Origin: Rhynchopus sp. YZ270_cl-10
Lineage: Eukaryota
Direction of reading: 5' to 3'
NCBI GenBank assembly: GCA_964035575.1
Contig: OZ037836.1
Span: 1,798,001 to 1,862,000 of the forward strand
Length of the DNA: 64,000 bases
Part shown: in pieces, positions 19,069 to 62,973 of the stretch
Numbering within the stretch: the first letter of the stretch is position 1
How the letters are laid out: every line of letters starts with the position of its first letter
The notes under the pieces: model-generated
Told to the model about the DNA's origin: nothing
Seen by the model: only the letters and a program-made list of their open reading frames with translations
Database searches by the model: none
Made by a program: the position numbers and the translations under genes

Positions 19069-20205
19069 ATGGACGTGCACTTCGAGGATTTCAGAGCGAA
19101 TCAGCACACAGTCGAGGTGGGTGTGGATGACACAGTGGAGGGCTTGCGGCGGAAGGTGGCGTCTGCAATGGGGTTGCCTGAAGACGGCTTTTGCATGAGT
19201 TTCGGAGACGAAGCGATGGGAGAAGGAGCGGACATGACGCAGCTGAGTGCTGGTGACACAATCATCCTCACGAAGACGAAGACGAAGAAGTACGAAGCCA
19301 TTGCAGAGCTTCATGCGTTGGGTGTGACCGACATCACAGCCGAGAGGCTGGAGAGTGTGGAGGATCCCGAGGTGGCGTGTTTGCTTCTGCAGGCGGAGGT
19401 TGCGACTGTCATTCCTGATGAGTTCTTGAGGGAGTCATTGTTGACGCACCTTGATCTCAGTGCTGTGTCCTTTGTGACACAGATTGGACACAACTTCCTC
19501 CAGTCGTGCACCTCGTTGACAAGTGTCGACCTCTCTGGGTTGAGCAATGTGACGCAGATTGGCAGTTACTTTCTTTACAAATGCAACTCGTTAACCACCC
19601 TGGATCTGACACCACTCAACAACGTTACGAGGATTGATAATTACTTTCTTTCCTGCTGCGAAAATTTTACCAACCTGGATCTCACACCACTCAACAACGT
19701 GACGGTGATTGGCGCTGGCTTTCTTGAAGGCTGCAACTCTTTAACCAACCTGGATCTGACACCACTCAACAACGTGACGGTGATTGGCGAGGGCTTTCTT
19801 GAAGGCTGCAACTCTTTAACCAGCCTGGATCTTACACCACTCAGCAACGTTACGGTGATTGGCAGTTACTTTCTTGAAGGCTGCAACTCTTTAACCAGCC
19901 TGGATCTGACACCATTCCACAACGTGACGTCGATTGACGCTAGATTTCTTTACAGGTGCAACTCTTTGACCAACCTGGATCTGGCACCACTCAACAACGT
20001 GACGGTGATTGGCGTTGGCTTTCTTCAGCGCTGCTACTCTTTAACCACCCTGGATCTGACACCACTTAACAAGGTTAGGTACGTGGGTTTTGATTTTGCT
20101 GAGGACTGCACTTCGTTGACAAGTATTTACCTTTCCGGCTGCAGCAGTGCTGTGTCCAACAAAGTAAGGACGAGTGAGCATCTGAAACATCTTGTGGTTG
20201 AGTAA
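19069..20205 (+). CDS. UBL-LRR protein class A, basic C-terminal tail lost
   Basis: N-terminal ubiquitin-like domain (VEVGVDDTVEGLRRKV...LSAGDTIIL) followed by 25-aa LRRs (LTTLDLTPLNNVTxIGxxFLxxCNS). Relative to paralogs, a 36-nt deletion plus CAA>TAA removes the tail. Confidence 0.85.
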   Translation: MDVHFEDFRANQHTVEVGVDDTVEGLRRKVASAMGLPEDGFCMSFGDEAMGEGADMTQLSAGDTIILTKTKTKKYEAIAELHALGVTDITAERLESVEDPEVACLLLQAEVATVIPDEFLRESLLTHLDLSAVSFVTQIGHNFLQSCTSLTSVDLSGLSNVTQIGSYFLYKCNSLTTLDLTPLNNVTRIDNYFLSCCENFTNLDLTPLNNVTVIGAGFLEGCNSLTNLDLTPLNNVTVIGEGFLEGCNSLTSLDLTPLSNVTVIGSYFLEGCNSLTSLDLTPFHNVTSIDARFLYRCNSLTNLDLAPLNNVTVIGVGFLQRCYSLTTLDLTPLNKVRYVGFDFAEDCTSLTSIYLSGCSSAVSNKVRTSEHLKHLVVE

Positions 20206-20658
20206 AGCCAGAAGCGACAGAGAAACACACAATGACGACGTGGTGTGCTGGTGGGAGGGGATAAAGGGAAGGACTGGAAGAAGGGTACGAAGGGAGGTGG
20301 GGATGGGGCCGGTAGGTACTGCCTACTCTACTCGTCTGCACAAACATTACAAAACAAAGAAAGACACAAAAACATAGGAGACATAAAGCAGGGAAAGGGG
20401 TTGAGGGACAGGAGGATAGGGATAAAGTCTGCCTAGATCAGAAGCGGACCTGTGTTCACATGATCTTCCCTTGAAGGGAGACTGGGAAGAATGAAAGCTG
20501 GGGGACAGGAGGCTGGGGATACATGCAAAGTTAATTGGGAGAACCGCTATTATTTGGGGATGAACTTATTTGGGGGCCCTTTACCAAAAACAAAATGGAA
20601 ATGATAAAAAAGAGAAAGTGGAGATTTCACCACTGTGGCAACACAACCGAGGCAACTA

Positions 20659-20767
20659 CAGTGCGGCGCGATATTACGGTGGCGCGATATTACGGGTGCG
20701 CAATATTACGGGGCGCATAATTATGGGTAAAAATTGGATTTACCCATAATTATGCGCCCCCGTAACA

Positions 20768-20798
<31 letters not shown>

Positions 20799-22382: not shown

Positions 22383-23390
22383 ATGGAAATATGTGTGAAG
22401 AGCTTTGACGGAGAGAAGTACACAGTCGAGGTGGGTGTGGATGATACAACTGCGGACATACGGCGGAAGGTGGCGTCTGCAGCAGAGTTGTGCGAAGACG
22501 GCTTTGACATGAGCTTCGGAGAGAAGCTGCTGGCGGAAGGAGACGACACGACGCAGCTGAGTGCTGGGGACACAGTTGTGCTGACGAAGACGCAGTCGCA
22601 GAAGGACGACGCCATTGCAGCTCTTCGTGACTTGGGTGAGACAGCGCTGACGTCAGACAGGTTTGAAGGTCTGAGAGATCCCAAGCTGGTTCATTTGTTT
22701 CTGCAGGCGGAGGTTGTTACTGAGCTACCCAATCAATTCTTGGAAGGTGGCACGTTCGAAGAACTTGATCTCAGTGGTGTGCCAGGTGTGCTTGTAGTCC
22801 GGAAATTTGTCCTCGCCGACTGCAGGTCTTTGCACACAGCTGATTTGTCTGGGTGGAGCAATGTCACGCATATTGAGTCCTTCTTCCTCAACCATATGAG
22901 CGCCTTGCGAACACTTGACTTATCTGGGTGGAACAATGTGACGCGGGTTGGTGAGTGCTTCCTCTACAACTGCACCTCATTAACCACACTGGATATTTCT
23001 GGGTGGAACAATGTGACGCACATTAAGTACTCGTTTCTCTCCTCCTGCACCGCATTACGAAGCCTTGACTTGTCTGGGTGGAACAATGTGACCCGGGTTG
23101 ACAACAACTTTCTCTGCAACTGCACCTCATTGACCACACTGGATATTTCTGGGTGGAACAATGTGACGCAACTGGGAGACTGCTTTCTCTACTACTGCAC
23201 CGCATTGAAAACACTTGACTTATCTGGGTTGACGAATACCGAGGAGATTGGGAGAAACTTCCTGTATGGATGCAACATACCCACAAGCAGCATCAACGTC
23301 ACCGGATCGAGCAGCGTTGTTTCAGAATGTGTGCATGACTATGGCGGTAGCCTCGTGGACGATACCAAGTGCAAATGTGTGTGCATGTGA
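22383..23390 (+). CDS. UBL-LRR protein class B (CaaX)
   Basis: MEICVKSFDGEKYTVEV UBL, LxTLDLSGWNNVTxxxxxFLxxC repeats, ends KCKCVCM*. Confidence 0.88.
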   Translation: MEICVKSFDGEKYTVEVGVDDTTADIRRKVASAAELCEDGFDMSFGEKLLAEGDDTTQLSAGDTVVLTKTQSQKDDAIAALRDLGETALTSDRFEGLRDPKLVHLFLQAEVVTELPNQFLEGGTFEELDLSGVPGVLVVRKFVLADCRSLHTADLSGWSNVTHIESFFLNHMSALRTLDLSGWNNVTRVGECFLYNCTSLTTLDISGWNNVTHIKYSFLSSCTALRSLDLSGWNNVTRVDNNFLCNCTSLTTLDISGWNNVTQLGDCFLYYCTALKTLDLSGLTNTEEIGRNFLYGCNIPTSSINVTGSSSVVSECVHDYGGSLVDDTKCKCVCM

Positions 23391-24021: not shown

Positions 24022-24993
24022 ATGGACGTGCACTTCGAGGATTTCAGAGCGAATCAGCACACAGTCGAGGTGGGTGTGGATGACACAGTGGAGGGCTTGC
24101 GGCGGAAGGTGGCGTCTGCAATGGGGTTGCCTGAAGACGGCTTTTGCATGAGTTTCGGAGACGAAGCGATGGGAGAAGGATACGACATGACGCAGCTGAG
24201 TGCTGGTGACACAATCATCCTCACGAAGTCGCAGAAACAAGAAGCCATTGCGGAGCTTCATGCGTTGGGTGAGACCGACCTGACGCCAGAGAGGTTGGAG
24301 GAGGTGGAAGATCCTGAGGTGGCGTGTTTGCTTCTGCAGGCGGAGGTTGCGACTGTCATTCCTGATGGGTTCTTGAGGAGGGTATCGGTAACGCACCTTG
24401 ATCTCAGTGCTGTGTCCTTTGTGACACAGATTGGAGACAGCTTCCTCGAGCAGTGCACCTCGTTAACAAGTATCGACCTCTCTGGGTTGAGCAATGTGAC
24501 GCGGATTGGCATTTGTTTTCTTTACGGCTGCAACTCTTTAACCACCCTGGATCTGACACCACTCCACAACGTGACGGTGATTGGCGATAACTTTCTTCAC
24601 GACTGCAACTCTTTCACCACCCTGGATCTGACCCCTCTCAACCACGTGACAGTGATTAGGAATTACTTTCTTTGCTGCTGCAAATCGTTAACCACCCTTG
24701 ATCTGACACCACTTAACAACGTGACGGTGATTGGCTTTGGGTTTCTTGGCGGCTGCACGTCTTTAGCCACCCTGGATCTTACACCACTTAACAAGGTTAC
24801 GTACATAGGTTCGGAATTTGCTGGGAACTGCACTTCGTTGACAAGTATTTACCTTTCCGGTTGCAGCAGTGCTGTGTCCAACAAAGTAAGGACGAGTGAG
24901 CATCTGAGGCAGCTTGTGGTTGAAGCACGTCCGAAACGCAGCAGAGACGAATCCCCCGAGCAAGCACACAAACGACAGAGACACGCACAATGA
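24022..24993 (+). CDS. UBL-LRR protein class A (NLS-like tail)
   Basis: Start assigned by paralogy (MDVHFEDF). Ends RPKRSRDESPEQAHKRQRHAQ. Confidence 0.88.
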   Translation: MDVHFEDFRANQHTVEVGVDDTVEGLRRKVASAMGLPEDGFCMSFGDEAMGEGYDMTQLSAGDTIILTKSQKQEAIAELHALGETDLTPERLEEVEDPEVACLLLQAEVATVIPDGFLRRVSVTHLDLSAVSFVTQIGDSFLEQCTSLTSIDLSGLSNVTRIGICFLYGCNSLTTLDLTPLHNVTVIGDNFLHDCNSFTTLDLTPLNHVTVIRNYFLCCCKSLTTLDLTPLNNVTVIGFGFLGGCTSLATLDLTPLNKVTYIGSEFAGNCTSLTSIYLSGCSSAVSNKVRTSEHLRQLVVEARPKRSRDESPEQAHKRQRHAQ

Positions 24994-26184: not shown

Positions 26185-27318
26185 ATGGAAATATGTGTGA
26201 AGAGCTTTGACGGAGAGAAGTACACAGTCGAGGTGGGTGTGGATGATACAACTGCGGACATACGGCGGAAGGTGGCGTCTGCAGCAGAGTTGTGCGAAGA
26301 CGGCTTTGACATGAGCTTCGGAGGGAAGCTGCTGGCCGAAGGAGACGACACGACGCAGCTGAGTGCTGGGGACACAGTTGTGCTGACGAAGACGAAGTCG
26401 CAGAAGGACGACGCCATTGCAGCTCTTCGTGACTTGGGTGAGACAAGGCTGACGTCAGAGAGGTTCGAAGGTCTGGAAGATGGCACGCTGATTCATTTGT
26501 TTCTGCAGGCGGAGGTTGTTACTCAGGTACCCAATGAATTCTTGGCTGGTGCTTTTCTGGTGGAACTTGATCTCAGTGGTGTGCCAGGTGTGACTAAAAT
26601 AATGCCTAACTTCCTCGAGTGCAGCTCATTGCACACTGCTGATTTATCTGGGTGGAGCAATGTCACCCAGATCGAGAGCTACTTCCTCGCCAACTGCAGG
26701 AAGCTGACCACACTGGACATTTCTGGGTGGAACAATGTGACGCAAATTGGGCACGGCTTTCTCTACACCTGCAATTCGTTGACCACACTTGACTTGTCTG
26801 GGTGGAACAACGTGACGCACATAGGTAGCTTCTTCCTATACACTTGCGACGCATTGAGAACCCTTGACTTGTCTGGGTGGAGTAATGTGAGACAGGTTGA
26901 AGATCGCTTCGTTCAGAGCTGCCGCGCATTGACAACACTTGACGTATCTGGGTGGAGCCATGTGACGCAGGTAGGCTGTTCATTCGTCAGCCACTGCACC
27001 TCATTGACCACACTTGACATTTCTGGGTGGAAGAACGTGACATACATCGGTAGCTCCTTTTTCTCCAACTGCAGCTCGTTGACCACACTGGACTTATCTG
27101 GGTGGAACAATGTTACCCACATTGCAGACAACTTCATCACCAGCTGCAGCTCGTTAAGAACACTGGACTTATCTGGGTGGGCGAGTGTGATGTATATTGG
27201 GCGAGGTGCACTGAAACACTGTAACTTACGTAAATGCAGCATCAACGTCACCGGATCGAGCAGTGTTGTGTCAGAATATGTGCAGAAGCGTACCAAGCGC
27301 GAATGTGTGTGCATGTGA
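26185..27318 (+). CDS. UBL-LRR protein class B (CaaX)
   Basis: Paralog, ends KRTKRECVCM*. Confidence 0.88.
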   Translation: MEICVKSFDGEKYTVEVGVDDTTADIRRKVASAAELCEDGFDMSFGGKLLAEGDDTTQLSAGDTVVLTKTKSQKDDAIAALRDLGETRLTSERFEGLEDGTLIHLFLQAEVVTQVPNEFLAGAFLVELDLSGVPGVTKIMPNFLECSSLHTADLSGWSNVTQIESYFLANCRKLTTLDISGWNNVTQIGHGFLYTCNSLTTLDLSGWNNVTHIGSFFLYTCDALRTLDLSGWSNVRQVEDRFVQSCRALTTLDVSGWSHVTQVGCSFVSHCTSLTTLDISGWKNVTYIGSSFFSNCSSLTTLDLSGWNNVTHIADNFITSCSSLRTLDLSGWASVMYIGRGALKHCNLRKCSINVTGSSSVVSEYVQKRTKRECVCM

Positions 27319-29236: not shown

Positions 29237-30361
29237 ATGGACGTGCACTTCGAGGATTTCAGAGCGAATCAGCACACAGTCGAGGTGGGTGAAGATGACA
29301 CAGTGGAGGGCTTGCGGCGGAAGGTGGCGTCTGCAATGGGGTTGCCTGAAGACAGCTTTTGCATGAGTTTCGATGGCGAAGCGATGGGAGAAGGATACGA
29401 CATGACGCAGCTGAGTGCTGGTGAGACAATCATCCTGACGAAGACGAAGACGAAGAAGTACGAAGCCATTGCAGAGCTTCATGCGTTGGGTGAGACCAAC
29501 ATCACAGCCGAGAGGCTGGAGAGTGTGAGGGATCCTGAGGTGGCGTGTTTGCTTCTGCAGGCGGAGGTTGCGACTGTCATTCCTTATCATTTCTTGAGGG
29601 AGACATCGTTAACGCACCTTGATCTCGGTGCTGTGTCCTTTGTGACACAGATTGAAGAGAGCTTCCTCGAGGAGTGCACCTCGTTAACAAGTATCGACCT
29701 CTCTGGGTTGAGCAATGTGACGGTGATTGGCAGGAACTTTCTTTACAAATGCAACTCGTTAACCACCCTGGATCTGACACCACTTGGCAACGTTACGAGG
29801 ATAGATAATTACTTTCTTTCCGGCTGCAACTCTTTAACCAGCCTGGATCTCACACCACTCCACAACGTTACGAGGATTGGCACTTTCTTTATTTCCTACT
29901 GCAACTCGTTAACCACCCTTGATCTGACACCACTTGGCAACGTGACGGAGTTTGGCTTTTTCTTTCTTGCCGGCTGCAGCTCTTTAACCACCGTGGATCT
30001 TACACCACTCCACAACGTGACGAAGATTAGCGACAGCTTTCTTCAGCGCTGCACCTCTTTAACCACCCTGGATCTGACACCACTCCACAACGTTACGAGT
30101 ATTTGCAGTAACTTTCTTCTGTGCTGCTCTTTAACCACCCTGGATCTCTCACCACTTAACAAGGTTAAGTACGTTGGTTCCGGTTTTGCTGGGAACTGCA
30201 CGTCGTTGACGAGTATTTACCTTTCCGGCTGCAGCAGTGCTGTGTCCAACAAAGTAAGGAAGAGTGAGCATCTGAGGCAGTTTGTGGTTGAAGCACGTCC
30301 GAAACGCAGCAGAGACGAATCCCCCGAGCAAAGCCAGAAGCGACAGAGACACGCACAATGA
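29237..30361 (+). CDS. UBL-LRR protein class A (NLS-like tail)
   Basis: Paralog, ends RPKRSRDESPEQSQKRQRHAQ. Confidence 0.88.
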   Translation: MDVHFEDFRANQHTVEVGEDDTVEGLRRKVASAMGLPEDSFCMSFDGEAMGEGYDMTQLSAGETIILTKTKTKKYEAIAELHALGETNITAERLESVRDPEVACLLLQAEVATVIPYHFLRETSLTHLDLGAVSFVTQIEESFLEECTSLTSIDLSGLSNVTVIGRNFLYKCNSLTTLDLTPLGNVTRIDNYFLSGCNSLTSLDLTPLHNVTRIGTFFISYCNSLTTLDLTPLGNVTEFGFFFLAGCSSLTTVDLTPLHNVTKISDSFLQRCTSLTTLDLTPLHNVTSICSNFLLCCSLTTLDLSPLNKVKYVGSGFAGNCTSLTSIYLSGCSSAVSNKVRKSEHLRQFVVEARPKRSRDESPEQSQKRQRHAQ

Positions 30362-34206: not shown

Positions 34207-34245
34207 ACCAACGATTTCTAAAGCTACAGTTTCTGTACTTCATTG
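34207..34245 (+). ncRNA. Spliced-leader (SL) exon sequence, euglenozoan/diplonemid type (orphan copy)
   Basis: ACCAACGATTTCTAAAGCTACAGTTTCTGTACTTCATTG, 39 nt. It carries the conserved ACAGTTTCTGTACTxxATTG 3' half of kinetoplastid/diplonemid SL exons as I recall them, and is followed by GT. Confidence 0.85.
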
Positions 34246-34298
34246 GTCGAGGTGTGTGCGTTTCACCACAAATCTTACACAACCTCTACAAAAATAAA

Positions 34299-35288: not shown

Positions 35289-35342
35289 CAGTCCCACCCA
35301 CCCACCCATCACGAGGAACTGCTACGGGTAGAGGGGGAGAAG

Positions 35343-46125: not shown

Positions 46126-46133
46126 TCACGACC

Positions 46134-49100
46134 GTGGGCCTTGCCCCACTAAAGATAGTGTGCAGCAATGTGACGGCGCTGCAGACAGGCGGGAGCTCTC
46201 TGCTGAAGGTTGCGGAGGATGCTCACGTTGTTCTGGTACAAGAGACAAAGTGCACCGTGACGACGCAGAAGCGCCTCTCCATCGAGTACCGCGAGCAGGG
46301 TTGGCAGGTGGTGTGGGGTAAGGAGTTGCCGGAATGGAGGTCGGCCGAAGAAGCGAAATCTGGTGGTGTTGCGATTCTGGTGAAAGAGGGAATACCTGTG
46401 CTCACGAGCCCGCCCTCCTCAACCTTGGAAAAGAACCTCTGGGACTCAACGCGATGGGTGAAGGCGAAGGTGGCGTACGGCAAAGGCAACGAGTGGATCG
46501 ACGTGACCTCCGTCTACGCGCCGTCGGCGGACCCGGAGGCTAGGGAGAAAATACTTGGCGAGGTGATGGAGGCTGCTGCAGAGCTTGGTGATATTCCTGG
46601 GGTGATTGGTGGGGATTTCAACGCAGGTCCAGGGAAATCAGGTGTGCTGGCTGCTACACTGGACACAGGATGGTGGAAGGACACTGCCGAAGAGCACGCA
46701 AGGGTGCTTGGGACGACCCCGGACAACACCTACTTCTCGGTGAAAGACGGCAAGGAGATCCGCAAGAGGCTCGATTACGTTCTGCTGAACCGAGCTGCGT
46801 GCACAGGGCTGTCGTCTGTGAAGGTTGTCCACGACTCTGGGCTCCCGCAGCACAGACCGGTAGAGATAGCGCTGGATGTAGGTGCGTACAGGCAGATCGT
46901 GCTCGCGTACACTCTGCCGAAGCAGTTCCCTTTGGACAAGTGTGGACAAGGCGTGAAGAATGCACAAAAGGCGTTTGCGAGCAAGGAGCTGCAGTGGGGG
47001 GCGCTTCAACACCCTCAGGATAGGTGGATACAGTGGAACAAGTGGGCAGAGGACTTCTTGCTGCAGGCGTGCGAAGGCGAGATTGAGGGCCCGACGAAGG
47101 CGTATTGCGGAAGAGGCAAAACGTTTGACCCGAAGCCGAAGCACCGGACTGCGAAGCAGAGCAAGGAAGGGGACGCTCTGACAGTGAGCCAGAGAAGGCT
47201 GACGAAGAACGTGGGCAGGCTGGAAGAATGTCGGCTGTGGTACGTGAGGAGCAACGGTGGTGTGCCGCCACATGACGTGTGCAATTGTTGGAGCAAGGCG
47301 CGGAAGGAACTGCGTGTTCTGCTGGACGACGACTCACTGCAACAGGATATGCCTAGCGAGGAGGCTTTGGTGGATCTGTGCAGAGCCGTGCGAGTGAAGG
47401 TGTCAACGCTTGCGGACCGAGTGAAGCGGAAGCGACTGGAGGACTGGCGGCAGCGCCTACGGGATGCATGGCACAATGCTCCCAAGGCGATCTTCAAATA
47501 CTGCAAGGACGAACAGTACAGGAAGATGACTGCCCTGAAGAACGAGGATGGGAAGTTCACCGCCAACGCTGAGGAGATGGACACCCTCCTGCATGAGGCG
47601 TGGATGCCGATTCTTCGCCGATATGCGGAAAAGCCAGAGCCCGACTGGGGTGCGTTTAGGGAGAAGTTTACAGAAGACATCGCAGGCAAGGGGCAAGCGA
47701 TGCAGATGGACAGGCTGACGGGGAAGGAGTTGCAGCAAACTCTGGGGAGGATGAAGACACAAACTTCTGCTGGGGTGGAGGGTTGGCGCATGGCAGAGCT
47801 GAAGGCGCTTCCTCTGGTGCTGCTCGACAGGCTGGCAGATGTGTTTGATGCGATTGAGTGTACGGGGGAGTGGCCGCCTTCTTTGATGAGAGCACTCATT
47901 GCGCTCATCCCCAAAGGGGAAGACGACACCCCGCTGAAGCAGCGACCTATCACGATCACTTCGTGTATCTACAGACTGTGGGCGGCAGCGAGGTTGCGAA
48001 GGCTGATAAAGTGGCAGGAAAGCTGGATTGGTGAGCAACAGCACGGCTTCAGAGCAGGACACAGCACTGCACACCTGTACTGGCATCTGTCGCTCAAGCT
48101 GGAGAAGGCGGTACTGTCGGGTGACGACACAGACCAGGTATGGGGCTTCACGATCGACTACGCCAAATGTTTCGATCGTGTACCTCATGAGATTGTGCTA
48201 TCGCTGGCGGAGGAGTGGGGCGCGCACTGGCGTATTCTTGGACCACTGAGGGCTGCGTACACTGCCATGGAACGCCGCTTCAAGTTGGGAGACGTAGGTG
48301 TGGGAGGCACCTTTCGTACGACAAATGGTATCCTGCAAGGATGCCCACTTTCTGTCGTGCTGTTGAACGCGCTGATGGCGGTGTGGGGATCTGCAGTGAC
48401 GAGAAGGACCGGAGCAATCGCCATGGGGTACGCTGACGACGTGTATGCTGTGGCGAACACGGAAGCGGAGGTGCATGGTGCTGCGAGGGTGACGAAGGAG
48501 TTTATCACTGCTGCGGACATGGAGGTCAAGGCAGAGAAGTGCGTAGGGTTTACCTCGAAGGAGGGAACAAAGACGAAGTTTGGACTTGGCGACGGGCTCT
48601 TCCCCGACAAGAAGCAGTTCGGGGCGGTTGGAGCAGACATTTTGGCAGGAAAGGGGAACTTCGGGCCCATCGCGCGTGAGCGTGCGGTTACTGCGCACCG
48701 TGTGTTTACGAGGGTTTCGAGTGTGCCTTTATCCTTCACTGAGAAGGCACTTATTGGCGCAAGGGGACCAATGATGGCAGCGTTGCATGGGTGCGAAGTG
48801 ACAGACTTCTCAAAGCAGACCATAGAGACGCTGAGGCAAGGGGCAGCACTGGCAGTCTGGGGGCAGGGCAGGAAGCAGCGCACGCTGAACATTGTGTGGC
48901 ATGTGTTATCTCCGGTTGGGATTGATGCGCCAGCGGAGATTGTGCAGAGGAGGATGGCGGCCTTTCTCCGACTGACAGAAGATGACGGCATGCGGAGAGA
49001 AGCAGAAGAAGTGTGGAGGCTGGCACATGACCGAAGAGCGGAGCGGGAGGTGAGGCGGCGTGACAGGGCTTCAGATCTGGCACGTCTCCGGCGCGAGAAC

Positions 49101-50900
49101 CCTGGGGTTGCCAACCCAAGGGTTACTGAAGTGCACAAGAAGGGTGTGATAGAGTTGTTGTGGGACGACCTGGAGCGATACGGATGGCGGTGGAGCAGCT
49201 TCGACTTCTGGACCACACACATCGGGTTGAGGGTGCACGTTCGTCTGTGGGACAAGGGCAAATGGCTGCATGAGCTGAGAGAGGGCATCCGTGCACACGC
49301 GTACCGCCTGACAGTGACGACGAGGCCGTCGATGCAGGGCATTGAGGGAGGTGTGGATCGCCAGGCGACGAACGCAGTGTGGAAGGACCGCACGACCGAC
49401 AGATACCTGGCGGGCGCGATACGCGGAGCCTTGTCGGGCTCTCAGTTGGTGGGGGTGCAGCTGCTGAGGAACAAGGAGGTGGAGACTTCGTTGTGCCGAT
49501 ACTGTGGTGAGGCGATAGAGGACCGGAGACACGCTTGGTGGTGGTGCCCGCAGTGGGACGAAATTCGTGGAGAGGACATCGGAAAACTCCGGGTTTTGCT
49601 CAAAGACGCACCCCCGTGCTTCTTGGACTTTGGCCTGGTGCCGACGATATTCTTGCAGGAGCTGAGTGTTGCGGAGAGAGAGCAGACGGTGCGTCGTGTG
49701 CAACTGATGCTGGTCAGCATCGCGCTGGCAAGGCAGAAGTACGACGTGGAACATGGGTTTTCGCAGAAGAAGAAGAAGCAAGCGGTGGTGGGCCAATCCC
49801 TTTTTCCTTGGGGCTGGAATCCTCAGGAGGGTGCAGTGCTTGAGAGCTACAACCCGCTGGAGAACGTACTGTGGGGGAGCAAGTACATGAAGAAGAGTCC
49901 ACGCTGGACGGAAGACCACTTCTGGGCGCTGAAGGCATGGCTCGCTGCATTGCGTTGGCCTGATGGCACAACGCCCCCCATCACGCAGCTCGAGCTCATG
50001 CTGGACTTTGAGATCTTCTCGGGGTTGGACGTACCGGGTGAGACGGTGTTGAAGAGGGCCGAATCTTTTGGTGCCATGATGCGGACGGCGAAAACTATGG
50101 CGCATGGAAGGGACGTATGGAAAGGAGTGGAGAAGAGGGAGGTGCACCACTTACAGGAACTGGGTGCGGGGATCATGACGGGGTATTCTGTGCGACCTGT
50201 GCTGACGCATGCGGCGGGGGTTGAAGGATACCTGAAGGAGTTGCAGGAGAAGGCGACGTCGCGGAGAGCACTCTCCCGACAAAAGGAAAAGACGAAGGCG
50301 AGGTGGGGTGACGACGCGGATGTGGCTCATACTTCCACTCCGGAAGAACGCTCAGCAAAGAACGAACGCTGGAAGGAAGCGAAGGAAGAGCAGAAGCAGG
50401 CAGAGGAGGTGCGTAGTAGAGCTGCGATAGCTGCAGTTGCGGCAGAGCAGATTCGACGGCAGGAGGCACGCAGGCGGCAGACACCGGCTGTGCGTGTGGA
50501 CGTAAGGAGGAAGGTGGGGGCCATGCGGGTGTGTGACATACACACCAAGATGCGATGCGGGGACTGCGAGCACAACAACATCTCCATCACGGCGTGTTGT
50601 GCGACGCACCATTGTGATGAGCTTATTTTGGGTGACTGTGTGGAGGCGCGTGAGGCGTGTGAGGTGCATAACTTCTCGATGTGCGGACAGTGTGCGGGTG
50701 CGGGGAACGTGTCGATGAAGCAGTGCTGTCAGAAGCACCACAACTGTGTGGCCCACGGGAGGGGTGCTTGCGGTGCATGTGTGCAGGCGGGACGGAAGAG
50801 GAAGAAGGACGGATTGCCGATGCTGGCGTCTCCTCAGGCCTGTTGCGGGAAAGGGCACCACGACACGTCCCAGGGGCGTCTCGGGTTTGCCCCGCGATAA
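46134..50900 (+). CDS. LINE ORF2: AP endonuclease, reverse transcriptase, Zn-binding and Cys/His-rich tail
   Basis: APE motifs SNV, LVQET, SVYAP, GGDFN, RLDYVL and QHRPV. RT motifs LIPKG, RPITI, QHGFR, DYAKCFDRV, GILQGCPLS and YADD. Also CRYC..H..WWC and a C-terminal C..H...C..C...CC..HH repeat. Confidence 0.95.
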   Translation: MGLAPLKIVCSNVTALQTGGSSLLKVAEDAHVVLVQETKCTVTTQKRLSIEYREQGWQVVWGKELPEWRSAEEAKSGGVAILVKEGIPVLTSPPSSTLEKNLWDSTRWVKAKVAYGKGNEWIDVTSVYAPSADPEAREKILGEVMEAAAELGDIPGVIGGDFNAGPGKSGVLAATLDTGWWKDTAEEHARVLGTTPDNTYFSVKDGKEIRKRLDYVLLNRAACTGLSSVKVVHDSGLPQHRPVEIALDVGAYRQIVLAYTLPKQFPLDKCGQGVKNAQKAFASKELQWGALQHPQDRWIQWNKWAEDFLLQACEGEIEGPTKAYCGRGKTFDPKPKHRTAKQSKEGDALTVSQRRLTKNVGRLEECRLWYVRSNGGVPPHDVCNCWSKARKELRVLLDDDSLQQDMPSEEALVDLCRAVRVKVSTLADRVKRKRLEDWRQRLRDAWHNAPKAIFKYCKDEQYRKMTALKNEDGKFTANAEEMDTLLHEAWMPILRRYAEKPEPDWGAFREKFTEDIAGKGQAMQMDRLTGKELQQTLGRMKTQTSAGVEGWRMAELKALPLVLLDRLADVFDAIECTGEWPPSLMRALIALIPKGEDDTPLKQRPITITSCIYRLWAAARLRRLIKWQESWIGEQQHGFRAGHSTAHLYWHLSLKLEKAVLSGDDTDQVWGFTIDYAKCFDRVPHEIVLSLAEEWGAHWRILGPLRAAYTAMERRFKLGDVGVGGTFRTTNGILQGCPLSVVLLNALMAVWGSAVTRRTGAIAMGYADDVYAVANTEAEVHGAARVTKEFITAADMEVKAEKCVGFTSKEGTKTKFGLGDGLFPDKKQFGAVGADILAGKGNFGPIARERAVTAHRVFTRVSSVPLSFTEKALIGARGPMMAALHGCEVTDFSKQTIETLRQGAALAVWGQGRKQRTLNIVWHVLSPVGIDAPAEIVQRRMAAFLRLTEDDGMRREAEEVWRLAHDRRAEREVRRRDRASDLARLRRENPGVANPRVTEVHKKGVIELLWDDLERYGWRWSSFDFWTTHIGLRVHVRLWDKGKWLHELREGIRAHAYRLTVTTRPSMQGIEGGVDRQATNAVWKDRTTDRYLAGAIRGALSGSQLVGVQLLRNKEVETSLCRYCGEAIEDRRHAWWWCPQWDEIRGEDIGKLRVLLKDAPPCFLDFGLVPTIFLQELSVAEREQTVRRVQLMLVSIALARQKYDVEHGFSQKKKKQAVVGQSLFPWGWNPQEGAVLESYNPLENVLWGSKYMKKSPRWTEDHFWALKAWLAALRWPDGTTPPITQLELMLDFEIFSGLDVPGETVLKRAESFGAMMRTAKTMAHGRDVWKGVEKREVHHLQELGAGIMTGYSVRPVLTHAAGVEGYLKELQEKATSRRALSRQKEKTKARWGDDADVAHTSTPEERSAKNERWKEAKEEQKQAEEVRSRAAIAAVAAEQIRRQEARRRQTPAVRVDVRRKVGAMRVCDIHTKMRCGDCEHNNISITACCATHHCDELILGDCVEAREACEVHNFSMCGQCAGAGNVSMKQCCQKHHNCVAHGRGACGACVQAGRKRKKDGLPMLASPQACCGKGHHDTSQGRLGFAPR

Positions 50901-52254
50901 CGAAGGTGGTCACGTGGCGCCTTTCTCACCTCTCAGTTCATCTGAGAAGGTGGGGATGGGTCACGTCAACAAGTTTAATCTCATTGACCACACTGGATAT
51001 GTCAGGGTGGAACAATGTAAGGCACATAGGAGACGACTTTCTCTCCTACTGCAGCGCATTGCGAACCCTTGACTTGTCTGGGTGGAACAATGTGACGCGG
51101 GTTGATGAGCGCTTTCTCTTCAGCTGCACCTCATTGACCACACTGGATATTTCTGGGTGGAACAATGTGACGCAGCTTGGGTTTCGTTTTCTCTCCTGCT
51201 GCAGCGCATTGCAAACCCTTGACTTGTCTGGGTGGAACAATGTAACGCGGGTTGATGAGTCCTTTCTCTCCTCCTGCACCTCATTGACCACACTGGATAT
51301 TTCTGGGTGGCACAATGTAAGGCAAATAGGGAGGCACTTCCTCAAGAACTGCAGCGCATTGCGAACACTTGACTTATCTGGGTTGACGACTGTTCAGCAC
51401 ATTGAGGCAGACTTCCTAAAAGGATGCAACATACCCACAAGCAGCATCAACGTCACCGGATCGAGCAGTGTTGTGTCAGAATATGTGCAGATCCATAGCG
51501 GTAGCCTCTGCAAATGTGTGTGCATGTGAGGCATGTGCATCTTTCGAGAGGCTTGGCGCTCATTGCGATGTTCAGGGAACGAATTTTACATTGCACGTGA
51601 CACTTTGCCCCTACCAAAAATATGAAACTAGTGATATCTTTTTTTATGCCCGGTTCTTTGCATCCTTGCGTGCGTACACTGATACAACCAAGCATGTTGT
51701 TTTATACTAAGTTACGACAAATGCTTTGTCACAACACAGTTTTGTGGTGGGAAATGACTCTTTCATGAGCCAATTGTCTTTTTCTATGCAACATGTTAGA
51801 CCGTTTGGTCTGGGAGGGTTTAGGGTTCTTCTCTGTCTCAGTGATATGTTGAGCAATTACGAGAGGTGTTTGCCGTATTTTATTAGGACAAATACTTTGT
51901 GGTGGGAAATGATTAAAACATCTGAGACTTGTAGTTTATTCCTTTCCCCTATTATTGTGCACTCACCTCATTTCTGTACTTCAAGCAAAAGGGGTTTTTC
52001 CTTGTTGACATTAATTTCTGGGCGTGTTGCAGAGAACTATATAAAATGGAAGAAGCCTGTTCATTCAAGTTCAAGGTGGTTTTCCTCGCAACCGCGTGTG
52101 GTGACGTTTCTGCGTTCGTACGACCTCCACCAATGCTTTCCTCCACGCACTCCGTGCCTTCTTCCCACCATGATTGCCTCCTTCAGTGTTCTGATGTCCT
52201 CTCCTCCTCCCACAACCCCACCACACAACAGAGCAACACAAAAAAGAAGACAAA

Positions 52255-53993
52255 ATGGACGTAACCATCAAGGGGTACGACGACAACTCGTTCATGATCG
52301 AGGTGGGTGTGGATGACACAACGGAGACGATGCGGCAGAAGGTGGCGTCTGCAGTGGGGTTGGCTGAGGACAGCTTCCACATGGGCTTCGGAGGGAAGGA
52401 CGAAGGAGACGACATCACGCAGCTGAGTGCTGGAGACACAATCATCCTCACGAAAGCTACGAACCACCTTTGGGCATATGTTGGCTTCACTCAGAACCTT
52501 TTCGGAGAGCTCTCTCCATCCGGGGAAGGTGAAGATAACGCATGTTCTCGCTTCGTTTGGGGCGAACGCCATCACAGGCATCGACCGCCGTCCTATCTTT
52601 GCCGGCGGAGAAGAAACGTTGAAGGCATTGCGTGCGCTATACGATGCTGGTGTGGCGTACCGGCTGCAACGCAGCTCCGAAGGCATGTCTGAGGTGGAGC
52701 TCCGTGGTGGCGATAGAGCGAGAGGTACATGGATGGGGGAGTATTCTGCTGAGACGGCGTACCCCTCCACAGAAGTTAGGGGCAGGAGGGCACTACCATT
52801 CATCCAGCGGGCAGAACAGGAGACATCTGCGCATGCTCGCTACCGGCACCATGAGCACGTGCGTCCAGGGGACGCACCCGTGAAGGCACCTGAAGGAGCG
52901 GTTCCGATCTTCCAGTTTGCGATATGTGTGCTGCACCGGAAGACGAAGTGTGATGCCTGCTCGAAGAACGCCCAGGCAGACCTGATGCATTGCTGCTTTG
53001 CGCACCACTCCAACGACGACGGGTTACCGATCCGACACGAAGCGTGCACTAAGCATAGACTCTCGAGGTGCGGGAACTGTGTGCAAGAGAAGAGTACGCT
53101 GGATCACTGCTGCCGCCGCCACCACGACACCTCGAAGGGGCGACAGACGACGCTGGGAGGCTTCTTCAGGAAGAAGCAGACGAAGCAGAAGGATGGGCAC
53201 AGCAGGGGCGGTGATGGACTTATGTAACATCATCTCCACGATGTATTGTATCACCTATCTCGGATAGGGGTGCATGCATCGAAAACGGGCCCCCACCCTC
53301 ACGAAAGCTACGAAGTACGCAGCCCGAGCAGAGCTTCACGCGTTGGGTGAGACGGACATCACGTCAGAGCGGTTGGAGGAGGTGGAGGATCCTGAGGTGG
53401 CGTGTTTGCTTCTGCAGGCGGAGGTTGCGACTGTCATTCCGGATGACTTCTTGTCGGGTTCATCGTTAACGAGACTTGATCTGAGTGCTGTGTCATGTGT
53501 GACGGAGGTTGGTGACAGGTTTCTGTACAGTTGTACAACGTTGACAAGCATCGACCTGTCAGGGTTGAGCAATGTGACGCGCATCGGTAACTTCTTTCTC
53601 TACTACTGCAAAGGTTTAACCACTCTGGATCTTTCGCCACTCAGCAACTTGACGCACATCGGTGTCGACTTTCTCTACGACTGCGAAGGTTTAACCACTC
53701 TGGATCTTTCACCACTCAGCAACTTGACAGAAGTCGGTGGAGGCTTTCTCTCCTACTGCAAAGGTTTAACCACTCTGGATCTTTCACCACTCAGCAGGGT
53801 TAAGGTTGTTGGTTCGCACTTTCTTACGAACTGCACTTCGTTGAAGAGTATTCACCTTACCGGCTGCAGCAGTGCTGTGTCCGACGCAGTAGTGAAGTGC
53901 AAGCTGAGCAAACTTGTGGTTGAAGCACGTCCGAAACGCAGCAGAGACGAATCCCCCCAACAAGCACACAAACGGCAGAGACACGCACAATGA
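52255..53993 (+). pseudogene. Divergent UBL-LRR class A gene split by a truncated LINE (52255..52463 + 53315..53993)
   Basis: MDVTIKGYDDNSF UBL. Excision restores ILTKATKYAARAELHALG. Ends RPKRSRDESPQQAHKRQRHAQ. Confidence 0.85.
52464..53296 (+). mobile_element. 5'-truncated LINE (833 bp) related to the 43221 element, 18-bp TSD
   Basis: TSD CCTCACGAAAGCTACGAA at 52446-52463 and 53297-53314. It encodes the same Cys/His tail (CCRRHHDTSKGR versus CCGKGHHDTSQGR). Confidence 0.9.
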
Positions 53994-54882: not shown

Positions 54883-55884
54883 ATGGAAATATGTGTGAGG
54901 AGCTTTGACGGAGAGAAGTACACAGTCGAGGTGGGTGTGGATGATACAACTGCGGACATACGGCGGAAGGTGGCGTCTGCAGCAGAGTTGTGCGAAGACG
55001 GCTTTGACATGAGCTTCGGTGGGAAGCTGCTGGCCGAAGGAGACGACACGACGCAGCTGAGTGCTGGGGACACAGTTGTGCTGACGAAGACGAAGTCGCA
55101 GAAGGACGACGCCATTGCAGCTCTTCGTGACTTGGGTGAGACAGCGCTGACGACACAGAGGTTCAAAGGTCTGACAGATCCCAAGCTGGTTCATTTGTTT
55201 CTGCAGGCGGAAGTTGTTACTGAGATCCCCTCCAACTGCTTGAGAGATGGCACGTTCGAAGAACTTGATCTCAGTGGTGTGCCAGGTGTGACTGCAGTAG
55301 GCCACTCCTTTCTCTACTGCTGCACCTCATTGCACACTGCTGACTTATCTGGGTGGAGCAATGTGTCACCCCTAGAGGGTTTCTTTCTCTACAGCTGCAG
55401 CGCATTGACTACCCTTGACTTGTCTGGGTGGAACAATGTGACGCGGGTTGGTGACTACTTTCTTTACAAGTGCACCTCATTGACCACACTGGATATTTCT
55501 GGGTGGAACAATGTGACGCAACTTGGGAACTCTTTTCTCCGCGAGTGCAGCGCATTGCAAACACTTGACTTATCTGGGTGGAACAATGTAACGACTGTCG
55601 GATCCTGCTTCCTCTACAACTGCACCTCATTGACCACACTGGACTTATCTGGGTGGAACAATGTAACGCAGATTAGGAGCTACTTCCTCTCCAACTGCAC
55701 CTCATTGAGCACACTGGACTTGTCTGGGTGGAATAATGTTACGCAGATTCATCCATACTTCCTGTATCGATGCAACATACGGACAAGCAGCATCAATGTC
55801 ACCGGATCGAGCAGTGTTGTGACGAAAGATGTGCACAGCCGTAAGGTAAAGCACAAAATCAAACACAAATGTGTGTGCATGTGA
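54883..55884 (+). CDS. UBL-LRR protein class B (CaaX)
   Basis: Paralog, ends KHKCVCM*. Confidence 0.88.
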   Translation: MEICVRSFDGEKYTVEVGVDDTTADIRRKVASAAELCEDGFDMSFGGKLLAEGDDTTQLSAGDTVVLTKTKSQKDDAIAALRDLGETALTTQRFKGLTDPKLVHLFLQAEVVTEIPSNCLRDGTFEELDLSGVPGVTAVGHSFLYCCTSLHTADLSGWSNVSPLEGFFLYSCSALTTLDLSGWNNVTRVGDYFLYKCTSLTTLDISGWNNVTQLGNSFLRECSALQTLDLSGWNNVTTVGSCFLYNCTSLTTLDLSGWNNVTQIRSYFLSNCTSLSTLDLSGWNNVTQIHPYFLYRCNIRTSSINVTGSSSVVTKDVHSRKVKHKIKHKCVCM

Positions 55885-56787: not shown

Positions 56788-57699
56788 ATGGAAATATGTG
56801 TGAAGAGCTTTGACGGAGAGAAGTACACAGTCGAGGTGGGTGTGGATGATACAACTGCGGACATACGGCGGAAGGTGGCGTCTGCAGCAGAGTTGTGCGA
56901 AGACGGCTTTGACATGAGCTTCGGAGAGAAGCTGCTGCCCGAAGGAGACGACACGACGCAGCTGAGTGCTGGGGACACAGTTGTGCTGACGAAGACGAAG
57001 TCGCAGAAGGGCGAAGCATACTATGCTCTTCGTGACTTGGGTGAGACAGCACTGACGACACAGAGGTTCAAAGGTCTGGAAGATCCCAAGCTGATTCATT
57101 TGTTTCTGCGGGCGGAGGTTGTTACTGAGGTACCCAATGAATTCTTGTCAGGTGCCCCGTTCTCAGAACTTGATCTCAGTGGTGTGCCAGGTGTGACTGC
57201 AGTAGGCCACTCCTTTCTCCACTACTGCAGGGCGTTGCACACTGCTGATTTATCTGGGTGGAGCAGGGTGAGGCAAATCGGGGTAGCGTTCCTCGGCAGC
57301 TGCTACGCATTGAGCACCCTTGACTTGTCTGGGTGGAGGAATGTGACGCAGGTGGACGACCGCTTCCTCGCAAGCCTAACCTCGTTGACAACAGCCAACT
57401 TGTCTGGGTGGAGCAGGGTGGCGCAAGTAGGGATCTTCTTCCTCGCTGACTGCAGCTCGTTGACCATGCTTGACTTATCTGGGTGGAACAGTGTTACCCA
57501 CATTGCAGACGACTTCGTCATCCAGTGCAGCTCGTTGAGAACGCTAGACTTATCTGGGTGGGCGAGTGTGACGCATGTTGGGCGAGGTGCACTGAAACAC
57601 TGTAACGTACGTAAATGCAGCATCAACGTCACCGGATCGAGCAGTGTTGTGTCAGAATATGTGCAGAGGCGTACCAAGCGCGAATGTGTGTGCATGTGA
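56788..57699 (+). CDS. UBL-LRR protein class B (CaaX)
   Basis: Paralog, ends RRTKRECVCM*. Confidence 0.88.
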   Translation: MEICVKSFDGEKYTVEVGVDDTTADIRRKVASAAELCEDGFDMSFGEKLLPEGDDTTQLSAGDTVVLTKTKSQKGEAYYALRDLGETALTTQRFKGLEDPKLIHLFLRAEVVTEVPNEFLSGAPFSELDLSGVPGVTAVGHSFLHYCRALHTADLSGWSRVRQIGVAFLGSCYALSTLDLSGWRNVTQVDDRFLASLTSLTTANLSGWSRVAQVGIFFLADCSSLTMLDLSGWNSVTHIADDFVIQCSSLRTLDLSGWASVTHVGRGALKHCNVRKCSINVTGSSSVVSEYVQRRTKRECVCM

Positions 57700-60217: not shown

Positions 60218-61219
60218 ATGGAAATATGTGTGAAGAGCTTTGACGGAGAGAAGTACACAGTCGAGGTGGGTGTGGATGATACAACTGCGGACATACGGCG
60301 GAAGGTGGCGTCTGCAGCAGAGTTGTGCGAAGACGGCTTTGACATGAGCTTCGGTGGGAAGCTGCTGGCCGAAGGAGACGACACGACGCAGCTGAGTGCT
60401 GGGGACACAGTTGTGCTGACGAAGACGACGTCGCAGAAGGACGACGCCATTGCAGCTCTTCGTGACTTGGGTGAGACAGCGCTGACGTCAGAGAGGTTCG
60501 AAGGCCTTTCCGATACCAAGCTGGTTCATTTGTTTCTGCGGGCGGAGGTTGTTACTGAGATCCCCTCCAACTGCTTGAGAGATGGCACATTCTCAGAACT
60601 TGATCTCAGTGGTGTGCCAGGTGTGACTGCAGTAGGCCACTCCTTCCTCTTCCGCTGCACCTCATTGCACACTGCTGACTTATCTGGGTGGAGCAATGTG
60701 TCACCCCTAGAGGGTTTCTTTCTCTACAGCTGCAGCGCATTGACCACCCTTGACTTGTCTGGGTGGAACAATGTGACGCGGGTTGATGACTACTTTCTCT
60801 ACAAGTGCACCTCATTGACCACATTTGATATTTCTGGGTGGAACAATGTGACGCAACTTGGGAACTCTTTTCTCTGCGAGTGCAGCGCATTGCAAACACT
60901 TGACTTATCTGGGTGGAATAATGTAATGACTGTCGGATCCTGCTTCCTCGTCAACTGCACCTCATTGACCACACTTGACTTATCTGGGTGGAACAATGTT
61001 ACGCAGATTGGGAGCTACTTCCTCTCCAACTGCACCTCATTGACCACCCTTGACTTGTCTGGGTGGAATAATGTTACGCAGATTCATCCACACTTCCTGT
61101 ATCGATGCAACATACGGACAAGCAGCATCAACGTCACCGGATCGAGCAGTGTTGTGACGAAAGATGTGCACAGCCGTAAGGTAAAGCACAAAATCAAACA
61201 CAAATGTGTGTGCATGTGA
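60218..61219 (+). CDS. UBL-LRR protein class B (CaaX)
   Basis: Start assigned by paralogy. Ends KHKCVCM*. Confidence 0.88.
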   Translation: MEICVKSFDGEKYTVEVGVDDTTADIRRKVASAAELCEDGFDMSFGGKLLAEGDDTTQLSAGDTVVLTKTTSQKDDAIAALRDLGETALTSERFEGLSDTKLVHLFLRAEVVTEIPSNCLRDGTFSELDLSGVPGVTAVGHSFLFRCTSLHTADLSGWSNVSPLEGFFLYSCSALTTLDLSGWNNVTRVDDYFLYKCTSLTTFDISGWNNVTQLGNSFLCECSALQTLDLSGWNNVMTVGSCFLVNCTSLTTLDLSGWNNVTQIGSYFLSNCTSLTTLDLSGWNNVTQIHPHFLYRCNIRTSSINVTGSSSVVTKDVHSRKVKHKIKHKCVCM

Positions 61220-62121
61220 GGCACTGTCTGCTCTTGAGCGGCGTGTTCTTCTTCTTATCAACAAACACTCTGCAGTGGGATATGATCCACTACCACCGAT
61301 CCAAACTACTGTGCACTGATTTTCCGAAAGTCAGAATCTCTGACTTTCTGCCAGACTGCAGCAAGAGCTAGATACGCGGCGCCTGCCGAGTTGACATCGA
61401 TCTGTGCGAGCTGGGCTCACCAAGATATCTTGCCCGTGGCCAACAGCTCTACAGCCTGGGTGCTAATGACCCACCCCTGCACACCTACGGACAACACTGA
61501 TCCACTCTAACCTGCAGGTGTCCTGCGGGACGTCTTGCACTGGGAGCTGAGCTGCGCCTGCACCCGCAGAACAACGACTTCGAATGTGTAAACAACAAAT
61601 ACAAGCTACTTTGGTGTGGCTGAAGGGGGGTGGTGCTATTTTCTGCTATTTTGGGGTCGTCGGGCACACCATACTTTCCAGGGTTGAGGACAACGTGCGT
61701 CTATATCTTTTTTAGTACAATAGCCAGAGAAAACAGATCCTGCACTAGCAGGTGATTGTCGACACAGCAAGTGTGGATGCATCAACGCACAGCAAAAACG
61801 ATCAAAGAAAGAGACACAAGCATACTTTCAACGGAAAAAAGAAATCTGCTTTTATTCGTGTCGCCCCCTACCTCACCTGCTTATTCTTTACACTACCTTG
61901 AAGATAGTAAGTCTGGCGACTCACAAAAGTCATTAAAGCAATCTGGCAAGGTTATCTTCTTGCAGCCAACTTACTCGTGAACAACAATGATTTTGGGCAT
62001 CGTTACGTTGGGAAACTGCTTTATGCTTGTTCATGCATCACACCTGTGCTTTGTCAAGGCAACATAGAAGGTCTGAACGAACATCCCCTGCCTCAAAACA
62101 CCTGAAACAGAGAGACACAAA

Positions 62122-62973
62122 ATGGAAATATGTGTGAAGAGCTTTGACGGAGAGAAGTACACAGTCGATGTGGGTGTGGATGATACAACTGCGGACATAC
62201 GGCGGAAGGTGGCGTCTGCAGCAGAGTTGTGCGAAGACGGCTTTGACATGAGCTTCGGAGGGAAGCTGCTGGCCGAAGGAGACGACACGACACAGCTGAG
62301 TGCTGGGGACACAGTTGTGCTGACGAAGACGAAGTCGCAGAAGGACGACGCCATTGCAGCTCTTCGTGACTTGGGTGAGACAGCGCTGACGACACAGAAG
62401 TTCAAAGGTCTGGAAGATCCCAAGCTGATTCATTTGTTTCTGCAGGCGGAGGTTGTTACTGAGATCCCCCACTACTTCTTGGAAGGTACCACATTCTCAG
62501 AACTTGATCTCAGTGGTGTGCCAGGTGTGACTGCAGTAGGTTACTCCGTCCTCTACAACTGCACCTCATTGCACACTCTTGATTTATCTGGGTGGAACAA
62601 TGTGACGCACATCCGGCCCTATTTCGTCTCCAACTGCAGCGCATTGAAAACCCTTGACTTATCTGGGTGGAACAATGTAACGACTGTCGGATCCGGATTC
62701 CTCTCCAACTGCAGTGCGTTGACGACACTGGACTTATCTGGGTGGAACAATGTGACGCAGATTGGGAGCTACTTCTTCTTCAACTGCACTTCGTTGGACA
62801 CACTTGACTTGTCTGGGTGGACGAGTGTTACGCAGATTTATCCACACTTCCTGGAAGGATGCAACATACGGACAAGCAGCATCAATGTCACCGGATCGAG
62901 CAGTGTTGTGACGAAATATGTGCACAGCCGTAAGGTAGAGGACGATACCAAACACAAATGTGTGTGCATGTGA
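62122..62973 (+). CDS. UBL-LRR protein class B (CaaX)
   Basis: Paralog with fewer LRRs, ends KHKCVCM*. Confidence 0.88.
   Translation: MEICVKSFDGEKYTVDVGVDDTTADIRRKVASAAELCEDGFDMSFGGKLLAEGDDTTQLSAGDTVVLTKTKSQKDDAIAALRDLGETALTTQKFKGLEDPKLIHLFLQAEVVTEIPHYFLEGTTFSELDLSGVPGVTAVGYSVLYNCTSLHTLDLSGWNNVTHIRPYFVSNCSALKTLDLSGWNNVTTVGSGFLSNCSALTTLDLSGWNNVTQIGSYFFFNCTSLDTLDLSGWTSVTQIYPHFLEGCNIRTSSINVTGSSSVVTKYVHSRKVEDDTKHKCVCM

Follow-up and report, generated by a model that had tools for sequence, protein, structure and literature searches.

What is encoded by a tandem array of genes that join a ubiquitin-like head to a leucine-rich body, and why are such genes broken by retrotransposons at particular codons? 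Both questions are raised by a 64,000-nt stretch of DNA (the window, below), which was analysed by translated search with the N-terminal 120 residues of one protein family. The N-terminal domain was matched at 14 loci, all on the + strand, of which 4 belong to class A and 10 to class B. The family proteins begin directly with a ubiquitin-like (UBL) domain, continue with leucine-rich repeats (LRRs) of BspA type, and mostly carry one of two tails, resembling a nuclear localisation signal (NLS) in class A and ending in a CaaX motif in class B. An initial annotation, made from the letters of the window, had proposed a diversified intracellular recognition system that delivers its targets for degradation; overall that reading was partly supported, and it overlooked the retrotransposon hot spots within the genes. 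The explanation favoured here, at a probability of roughly 0.58, is a tandemly expanded repertoire of intracellular target-binding adaptors with two addresses, used as a safe harbour by long interspersed nuclear elements (LINEs) that insert at fixed codons.

The domain architecture was established by profile search and structure prediction. Isolated N-domains matched Pfam ubiquitin at 29.4 and 27.7 bits (cut-off 25.4), and the LRR_5 profile scored 65-99 bits in four of four window proteins (cut-off 27.7). An AlphaFold model of the class B gene B5 (40411..41412; 333 aa, CaaX end), built from a 69-row alignment, had a pLDDT (predicted local distance difference test) of 90.8 and comprised a UBL beta-grasp at residues 1-70, a three-helix cap at 73-108, an LRR solenoid at 113-300, a capping helix, and a loose CaaX tail. 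Residues 1-70 aligned with ubiquitin at a Z of about 12 and a root-mean-square deviation (rmsd) of 1.3-1.5 over 70 residues. The top structural match of B5 was TpLRR (6mlx; Z 20.5, rmsd 3.6, 200 aligned residues), followed by a gut-bacterial BspA-type protein (4h09; Z 20.0). The single-sequence model of a class A protein had a pLDDT below 50 in the UBL and was left out of the structure searches. The di-Gly that marks the domain end of conjugated ubiquitin-like modifiers was present in 0 of 182 proteins. The N-terminal UBL without di-Gly and the BspA/TpLRR-like repeats that had been proposed from the sequence are both upheld by these matches. Neither a leader nor a membrane helix was indicated, with no hydrophobic segment above 1.57 in the four proteins tested, which agrees with the proposed intracellular nature of the family. 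UBA, F-box, and RING domains gave no Pfam match in the window proteins or the isolated N-domains; for UBA this negative comes from profile search, the three-helix cap at 73-108 not having been folded and searched by itself. An Rfam scan gave 0 matches.

The surface of the UBL was examined in 308 proteins aligned to ubiquitin. The position of ubiquitin Ile44 is occupied by Ser in 237 of the 308, by Gly in 35, by Arg in 12, and by Ile in no more than 3; at the Val70 position 268 have Thr, and the net charge of the domain averages about -8.6. The canonical Leu8/Ile44/Val70 patch of ubiquitin receptors is therefore missing from the family UBL, and the delivery to the proteasome proposed in the initial annotation is weakened accordingly. 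According to the accessible part of PMC11012796, the acidic UBL of yeast Ddi1 binds Rpn1 weakly and also binds ubiquitin, so the family may yet be linked to the ubiquitin system. The domain varies little, with a mean variability of 0.48 bits in class B.

The C-terminal tails were counted in 323 distinct family proteins, 110 of which carry an NLS-like tail, 90 a CaaX tail, and 123 some other ending. A C-x-x-x terminus is retained in 78 of the 79 proteins with a class B cap even though anything from 14 to 45 aa separates the cap from the C-terminus; its final residue is Met in 70, Thr in 4, Ala in 3, and Ile in 1, and a second Cys lies two places before the CaaX Cys in 28 of the 79. The classical bipartite NLS consists of KR, 10-12 residues, and K(K/R)x(K/R), and this strict pattern was found in 78 of 115 proteins with a class A cap. 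Two conserved tail types are thus present in the family, as they are in the window, where three class A loci end in RPKRSR-x8-KRQR and ten class B loci in CVCM; the basic residues said to precede CVCM are weak in B1 and B6. From these motifs class A is predicted to be addressed to the nucleus and class B to membranes by prenylation. The division into two classes is itself a simplification: both are large, and many smaller divergent subfamilies, some with terminal Cys motifs of their own, occur elsewhere in the genome.

Variation within the repeats was measured per position over 323 class A and 350 class B repeat units. Positions 14, 17, 18, 21, 22, and 24 of the LRR were hypervariable (2.6-3.75 bits) in the two classes independently, and the LxxLxL strand was conserved in both. 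In most LRR receptors it is along the LxxLxL strand that the variable residues lie. Since the strand is conserved here and the variable positions lie elsewhere, the six positions would form a ligand-binding stripe on the other side, away from that strand. The earlier proposal of a diversified repertoire is thus supported. Codon models were fitted to window DNA, using 24 and 51 repeat units. Framework codons gave an omega of 0.3-0.4 in both classes, and a value of 1.0 was rejected by 9 to 36 log-likelihood units; the proteins are therefore under constraint (purifying selection). Mosaicism was seen over the first 121 codons of the ten B genes, where 251 of 406 pairs of sites were incompatible (p = 0.018), and two family proteins, P0032 and P0086, join an A-side head to a B-type body.

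Two of the 14 window genes were hit by LINEs, and the labels LINE-1 and LINE-2 are used for the families that interrupt B6 and A4, respectively. LINE-1 is full length (43221..50979, +, 7.76 kb) and splits B6 into a 5' half (42686..43220), whose final 17 bp are the target duplication (43204-43220), and a 3' half with a CVCM end (50980..51529), which opens with the second copy of that duplication. Its ORF1 (open reading frame 1; 43261-46125, +) contains an OTU protease domain in which the Cys, Trp-Gly, and His motifs are all present, and its ORF2 frame (46128-50900, +), open over 1590 codons, encodes an APE endonuclease and a reverse transcriptase (RT); with the target-site duplication these are among the features of target-specific APE-type retrotransposons that lack long terminal repeats. 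LINE-1 looks young, because its ORF2 frame is open and because 980 of the 1370 contigs of run X1 match it at 99% or more. LINE-2 is represented by a 5'-truncated 3' end of 0.83 kb (52464..53296, +), which separates the UBL-encoding 5' half of A4 (52255..52463; final 18 bp the target duplication, 52446-52463) from a 3' half with the bipartite NLS-like tail (53297..53993). This piece shares 70% amino acid identity with P0386, a full LINE-2 ORF2 protein that is 30% identical to the ORF2 of LINE-1. P0386 and a second full LINE-2 ORF2 protein, P0387, carry a 2A-like peptide motif ahead of the endonuclease, a feature of L1Tc/ingi elements; six of six other members of their cluster lie on contigs equal in length to contigs with family genes. 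Another protein, P0314, is an in-frame fusion of a family UBL with an OTU-bearing ORF1 related to that of LINE-1.

The points of insertion recur across the family. The 5' end of LINE-1 entered at LRR position 4/5 in B6 and in 13 of 13 family carriers found among 323 proteins. The junction lies directly after Leu4 of the repeat, in members of both classes; 1 to 6 counted units precede it, and two junction frames occur. The 12 carriers that could be placed require 12 changes on a 310-row UBL tree and therefore represent separate insertion events, with the reservation that gene conversion can scramble such a tree. About ten further proteins have other foreign tails at position 4/5. LINE-2 begins at the last UBL codon in five of five cases (P0168, P0302, P0306, P0334, and A4), with a different 5' truncation point in each. 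A further 15 tails of unassigned source also begin at the UBL-end codon, and the tails at this site require 18 changes for 19 rows of the UBL tree. Eight foreign tails start at a third site, near residue 95. In a less biased set clustered at 90%, the two commonest foreign tails occur in 16 of 233 proteins. A canonical intron was rejected as the explanation of the UBL-end junctions, given the mixed residues after the junction, the five matches to LINE-2, and the target duplication of the window case. Two individual proteins may be noted here: P0363 was apparently hit at both LRR position 4/5 and the UBL end, and in P0168 the frame is maintained across a short LINE-2 3' end and the accompanying duplication. 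Contigs of four runs were also aligned with LINE-1, where 7, 0, 4, and 5 cross its ends, which is uninformative on the flanks; among 24 of the 252 loose ends, one of 10 letters at 50978 resembles LRR codons.

The 14 loci reported in the initial annotation were all recovered, of which 11 are complete genes; A1 is tailless, and B6 and A4 are each split by a LINE. The window copies are intronless, with a repeat unit of 25 aa (75 nt) present about 4 to 9 times per gene, in agreement with the variable repeat number described earlier. A conserved AG precedes the ATG by about 17-20 nt. The alternation of the classes over 19 to 34 kb was likewise seen in the N-domain search, in the order A1 (19069..20205, 378 aa), B1 (22383..23390, 335 aa), A2 (24022..24993, 323 aa), B2 (26185..27318, 377 aa), A3 (29237..30361, 374 aa), and B3 (33309..34049, 246 aa). 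A1 lost its tail through a 36-nt deletion, relative to A3, followed by a stop; A2 and A3 have the bipartite NLS-like tail, and B1, B2, and B3 end in CVCM. B3 nearly duplicates the next gene, B4 (38344..39420, 358 aa, CVCM end), and is 336 nt shorter with the frame kept. Downstream of B5 and the two interrupted genes follow B7 (54883..55884, 333 aa), B8 (56788..57699, 303 aa), B9 (60218..61219, 333 aa), and B10 (62122..62973, 283 aa), all ending in CVCM. The A-B cassettes are recent duplicates with spacers 94% identical. The alternation is explained by duplication of the A-B cassette with its common spacer, and it was not taken as a sign that A and B proteins pair. In run X10, guessed to be RNA, shallow contigs cover genes and spacers alike and are uninformative on expression.

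The family is large and appears narrowly distributed. Protein searches returned 274 proteins that match B5 and 383 that share the N-domain of A3. The 120 best matches of each search gave 231 distinct proteins, of which, by a hand tally, 103 lie on the window's own 2.16-Mb contig and the rest on about 40 contigs. The records listed all come from ENA, each on one contig, and would be consistent with a single assembly. Among the best 150 matches of a profile search against 1.84 billion representatives, about 88 were family-like and the others were polyubiquitin-like repeats. The only named record among 28 looked up was a UBL-only protein of the diplonemid Rhynchopus euleeides (E 2.6e-17). Metagenome contigs gave three matches only, of 31 aa at 42%, which were taken as chance; there was no relative among 27 candidates from viral contigs, viral structures gave only generic LRR or ubiquitin matches, and PADLOC returned 0 of 2. 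The words 'leucine-rich' and 'ubiquitin' do not occur in the main text of the D. papillatum genome paper, and no such family appears in the part of its supplementary text that was available, which possibly does not cover the repeat sections of Additional file 1. The family thus appears restricted to a single genome, that of a euglenozoan and probably a diplonemid. Five relatives (P0321, P0388, P0389, P0288, and P0298) have a TRIM-like arrangement with two B-boxes and a coiled coil ahead of the UBL-LRR part; the B-box was matched in P0321 and P0288, and no RING was found within the predicted ORFs, upstream exons being outside view.

According to the favoured explanation, several hundred proteins would combine a constant ubiquitin-fold head with a variable BspA-type LRR body and one of two tails. 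The repeat body would bind diverse targets, class A acting at the nucleus and class B at membranes through prenylation, and the constant acidic UBL would recruit a single ubiquitin-system partner common to all members, likely by a route other than the canonical Ile44 patch. Repeat number and specificity would change through unequal crossing-over and gene conversion, LINE insertion would kill single copies in a process of birth and death, and the LINE families likely use the many gene copies as a safe harbour. As a class, the ligands would most likely be foreign proteins, coming from viruses, symbionts, or mobile elements. Several observations weigh against this explanation. The side of the solenoid assigned to the variable residues was placed from the repeat register rather than from coordinates. 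Class A variable codons gave an omega of about 2, with a gain over omega = 1 of 1.4 units (GY model) or 3.3 (MG model), a signal that is model-dependent and inflatable by recombination; class B variable codons gave 0.5-1.0, without positive selection. Positive selection is thus modestly supported, and in class A only. A counting-based dN/dS (nonsynonymous to synonymous rate ratio) of 2.39 (A) and 1.51 (B) for these codons was set aside as overstated relative to the likelihood models. The UBL of the window genes has a pN/pS, the corresponding polymorphism ratio, of 0.56 (B) and 0.93 (A), estimated from very few changes, so that its constancy may partly stem from recent duplication, and 37 of the 115 A-cap proteins do not show the full NLS pattern. 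As to the LINEs, the insertion counts were drawn from family-centred protein searches rather than from the genome, a search with the LINE-1 read-through peptide returned six proteins of which one (P0235) lies outside the family, and in P0119 a LINE-1-like 3' end lies upstream of the gene, so that LINE-1 is not exclusive to the family.

The same evidence was considered under other explanations. The proteins might be one-piece degradation receptors in which a substrate is bound by the repeats and the UBL either attaches to the proteasome or, like that of Ddi1, binds ubiquitin. The closeness of the domain to ubiquitin itself in sequence and fold speaks for this, as do the Rpn1 and ubiquitin binding of the acidic Ddi1 UBL (in the part of PMC11012796 cited above) and the TRIM-like order of at least three relatives. 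The prevailing Ser and Thr at the Ile44 and Val70 positions, the net charge of about -8.6, and the lack of a Pfam UBA, F-box, or RING match in the proteins searched make such a role unlikely, and a prenyl anchor would be expected to keep a shuttle on membranes. Surface adhesins or receptors like the BspA proteins of bacteria and Trichomonas are suggested by the repeat class, which is that of surface proteins, and by one Entamoeba BspA protein with a CaaX end that was reported from the cell surface (PMC2843621, in the part consulted). With the UBL at the very start of the protein, no leader or membrane helix in the four proteins tested, an NLS-like tail in class A, and prenylation described as anchoring on the cytosolic side (PMC5349171, as far as its text was available), a surface role is highly improbable.

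The retroelements bring in two further possibilities. The family could be an anti-retroelement system in conflict with its targets, in which its members detect retroelement proteins and are themselves disabled by the LINEs, through insertions aimed at their genes and through an ORF1 deubiquitinase. At least two LINE families, only 30% identical, strike one gene family at different fixed sites, foreign tails recur at the third site as well, the ORF1 OTU domain of LINE-1 has its motifs, and one protein class looks nuclear. Targeting of multicopy sequence is, however, a known low-harm strategy (PMC4640811) by which the insertions are explained without conflict, and with the two commonest foreign tails in just 16 of 233 proteins such a conflict is improbable. 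The wider version, an intracellular immune repertoire at nucleus and membranes that several LINE families, one of them with a deubiquitinase, attack with codon precision as a counter-defence, is distinctly unlikely too. At the other extreme, the array might be largely functionless, a once small family that recombination has multiplied within a region rich in repeats and that the retroelements have maintained as a place to land. Damage affects three of the 14 window copies, truncations are frequent among the family members, the class B variable codons are near neutrality, and the cassettes are recent duplicates; the constraint on the framework codons, the CaaX kept in all but one of the B-cap proteins at varying tail length, and the preservation of frame through gains and losses of repeats make this quite improbable.

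Other features of the window were recorded. Between B3 and B4 lies a degenerate retroelement of about 4 kb (34246..38221, +) with gag-like, tyrosine-recombinase-like, and RT-RNaseH regions, an internal stop, and a frameshift; no terminal repeat was seen, and the tyrosine-recombinase motif was read by eye in a region with no Pfam match. Its gene order presumably recalls that of VIPER/TATE elements. It is headed by a 39-nt stretch (34207..34245, +) resembling a spliced-leader exon, in which 16 of 17 letters agree with the motif quoted for prokinetoplastids in the accessible part of PMC7859406; the leader exon of D. papillatum is also given as 39 bp in the consulted part of PMC10161547. The leader-like stretch marks the host as a euglenozoan, and together with the Rhynchopus record it makes a diplonemid probable. 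The element at 34207-38221 may have arisen by retro-copying of a trans-spliced RNA. In three runs, contigs link a dispersed repeat at 21993 to 34211, and leader-headed copies therefore seem present elsewhere. An unrelated 258-aa ORF between A3 and B3 (31170-31946) had no Pfam match, and its start overlaps a spacer repeat common to 27716-27943. A near-perfect 7-bp tandem array of 70.6 copies (58782-59275) lies between B8 and B9, and a dispersed intergenic repeat of about 55 bp occurs in seven copies (11814, 14114, 15928, 21964, 40071, 59828, and 63520). Upstream of the array, a 3493-aa open frame (70-10551) with cysteine-rich EGF-like repeats and a hydrophobic segment at its end matched no Pfam family above cut-off, and an inward-rectifier potassium channel gene (16685-18059) is present in two pieces, probably split by an intron.

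The separate parts of the system all have precedents. The BspA-like LRR family of Entamoeba, with 116 proteins of which several have a C-terminal CaaX (PMC5349171 and PMC2843621, in the parts consulted), is, with the TvBspA proteins of Trichomonas, a large protist BspA/TpLRR expansion, and in Entamoeba it includes a CaaX-ending subset. It differs in that 'ubiquitin' is absent from the main texts of both papers and that the parts consulted describe no NLS class; TvBspA proteins have no CaaX. The trypanosome RHS family encodes proteins that are constant at the N-terminus and variable at the C-terminus, some of them nuclear, and its pseudogenes arise where retroelements insert at a fixed site within the coding region (PMC7563717, consulted in part). 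Like the present family, this euglenozoan multigene family receives recurrent retroelement insertions (ingi/RIME, L1Tc) at one coding position. The RHS site is single and lies near an ATP/GTP motif, whereas the family described here has at least two sites, each for a different LINE, one of which recurs in every LRR unit; no RHS domain was matched by Pfam among the window proteins or N-domains. In Tetrahymena, 76% of Tt.REP copies adjoin LRR repeat units of a young, species-specific expansion of genes with 90-bp exons (PMC6564038, in the part available). There, as far as that text goes, the REP LINEs lie in introns and are mostly removed from the somatic genome, the repeat class is another, and no UBL or addressing tails are described, whereas the LINEs here cut the coding sequence of intronless window genes at a fixed codon.

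The UBL-UBA shuttles Rad23, Dsk2, and Ddi1 also combine an N-terminal ubiquitin-system module with a substrate-binding part, and the UBL of Ddi1 is likewise acidic; they differ from the present family, which has no UBA match, no Ile44 patch, and hundreds of copies in place of one to three. F-box-LRR-CaaX adaptors of the FBXL2 type also pair a ubiquitin-system module with a substrate-binding part, and the family differs from them in having no Pfam F-box match; the N-terminal domain of Entamoeba BspA proteins is probably F-box-like. The same domain order, ubiquitin followed by DUF285/BspA repeats, occurs in two ESM Atlas clusters of 50 and 55 members, with ubiquitin in 100% and 89% of them and scores of 0.76-0.85, below 0.9, so that they are leads only. 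These clusters are unstudied and carry DUF285 repeats, called enigmatic in the accessible part of PMC11992049, instead of LRR_5; none was identified among the 150 best profile matches, and a parallel origin is therefore likely. The initial annotation knew of no described family with this architecture, which, going by these clusters, is not unique. In the literature, with subscription journals mostly uncovered, no account was found of a UBL plus BspA-repeat family or of a LINE that targets LRR codons. The targets listed for site-specific LINEs in the available part of PMC4640811 are rRNA, spliced-leader, tRNA, and snRNA genes, other transposons, microsatellites, and telomeres.

A protein-coding family in which each LINE has its own fixed codon of entry extends what is known from RHS, and the LINEs involved offer APE endonucleases with new sequence preferences. 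The recognition repertoires of free-living protists are barely known, and the simple anatomy of these proteins, with a constant head, six variable positions per repeat, and two address tags, makes ligand screens direct. The family also shows one route by which a repertoire of repeat proteins turns over.

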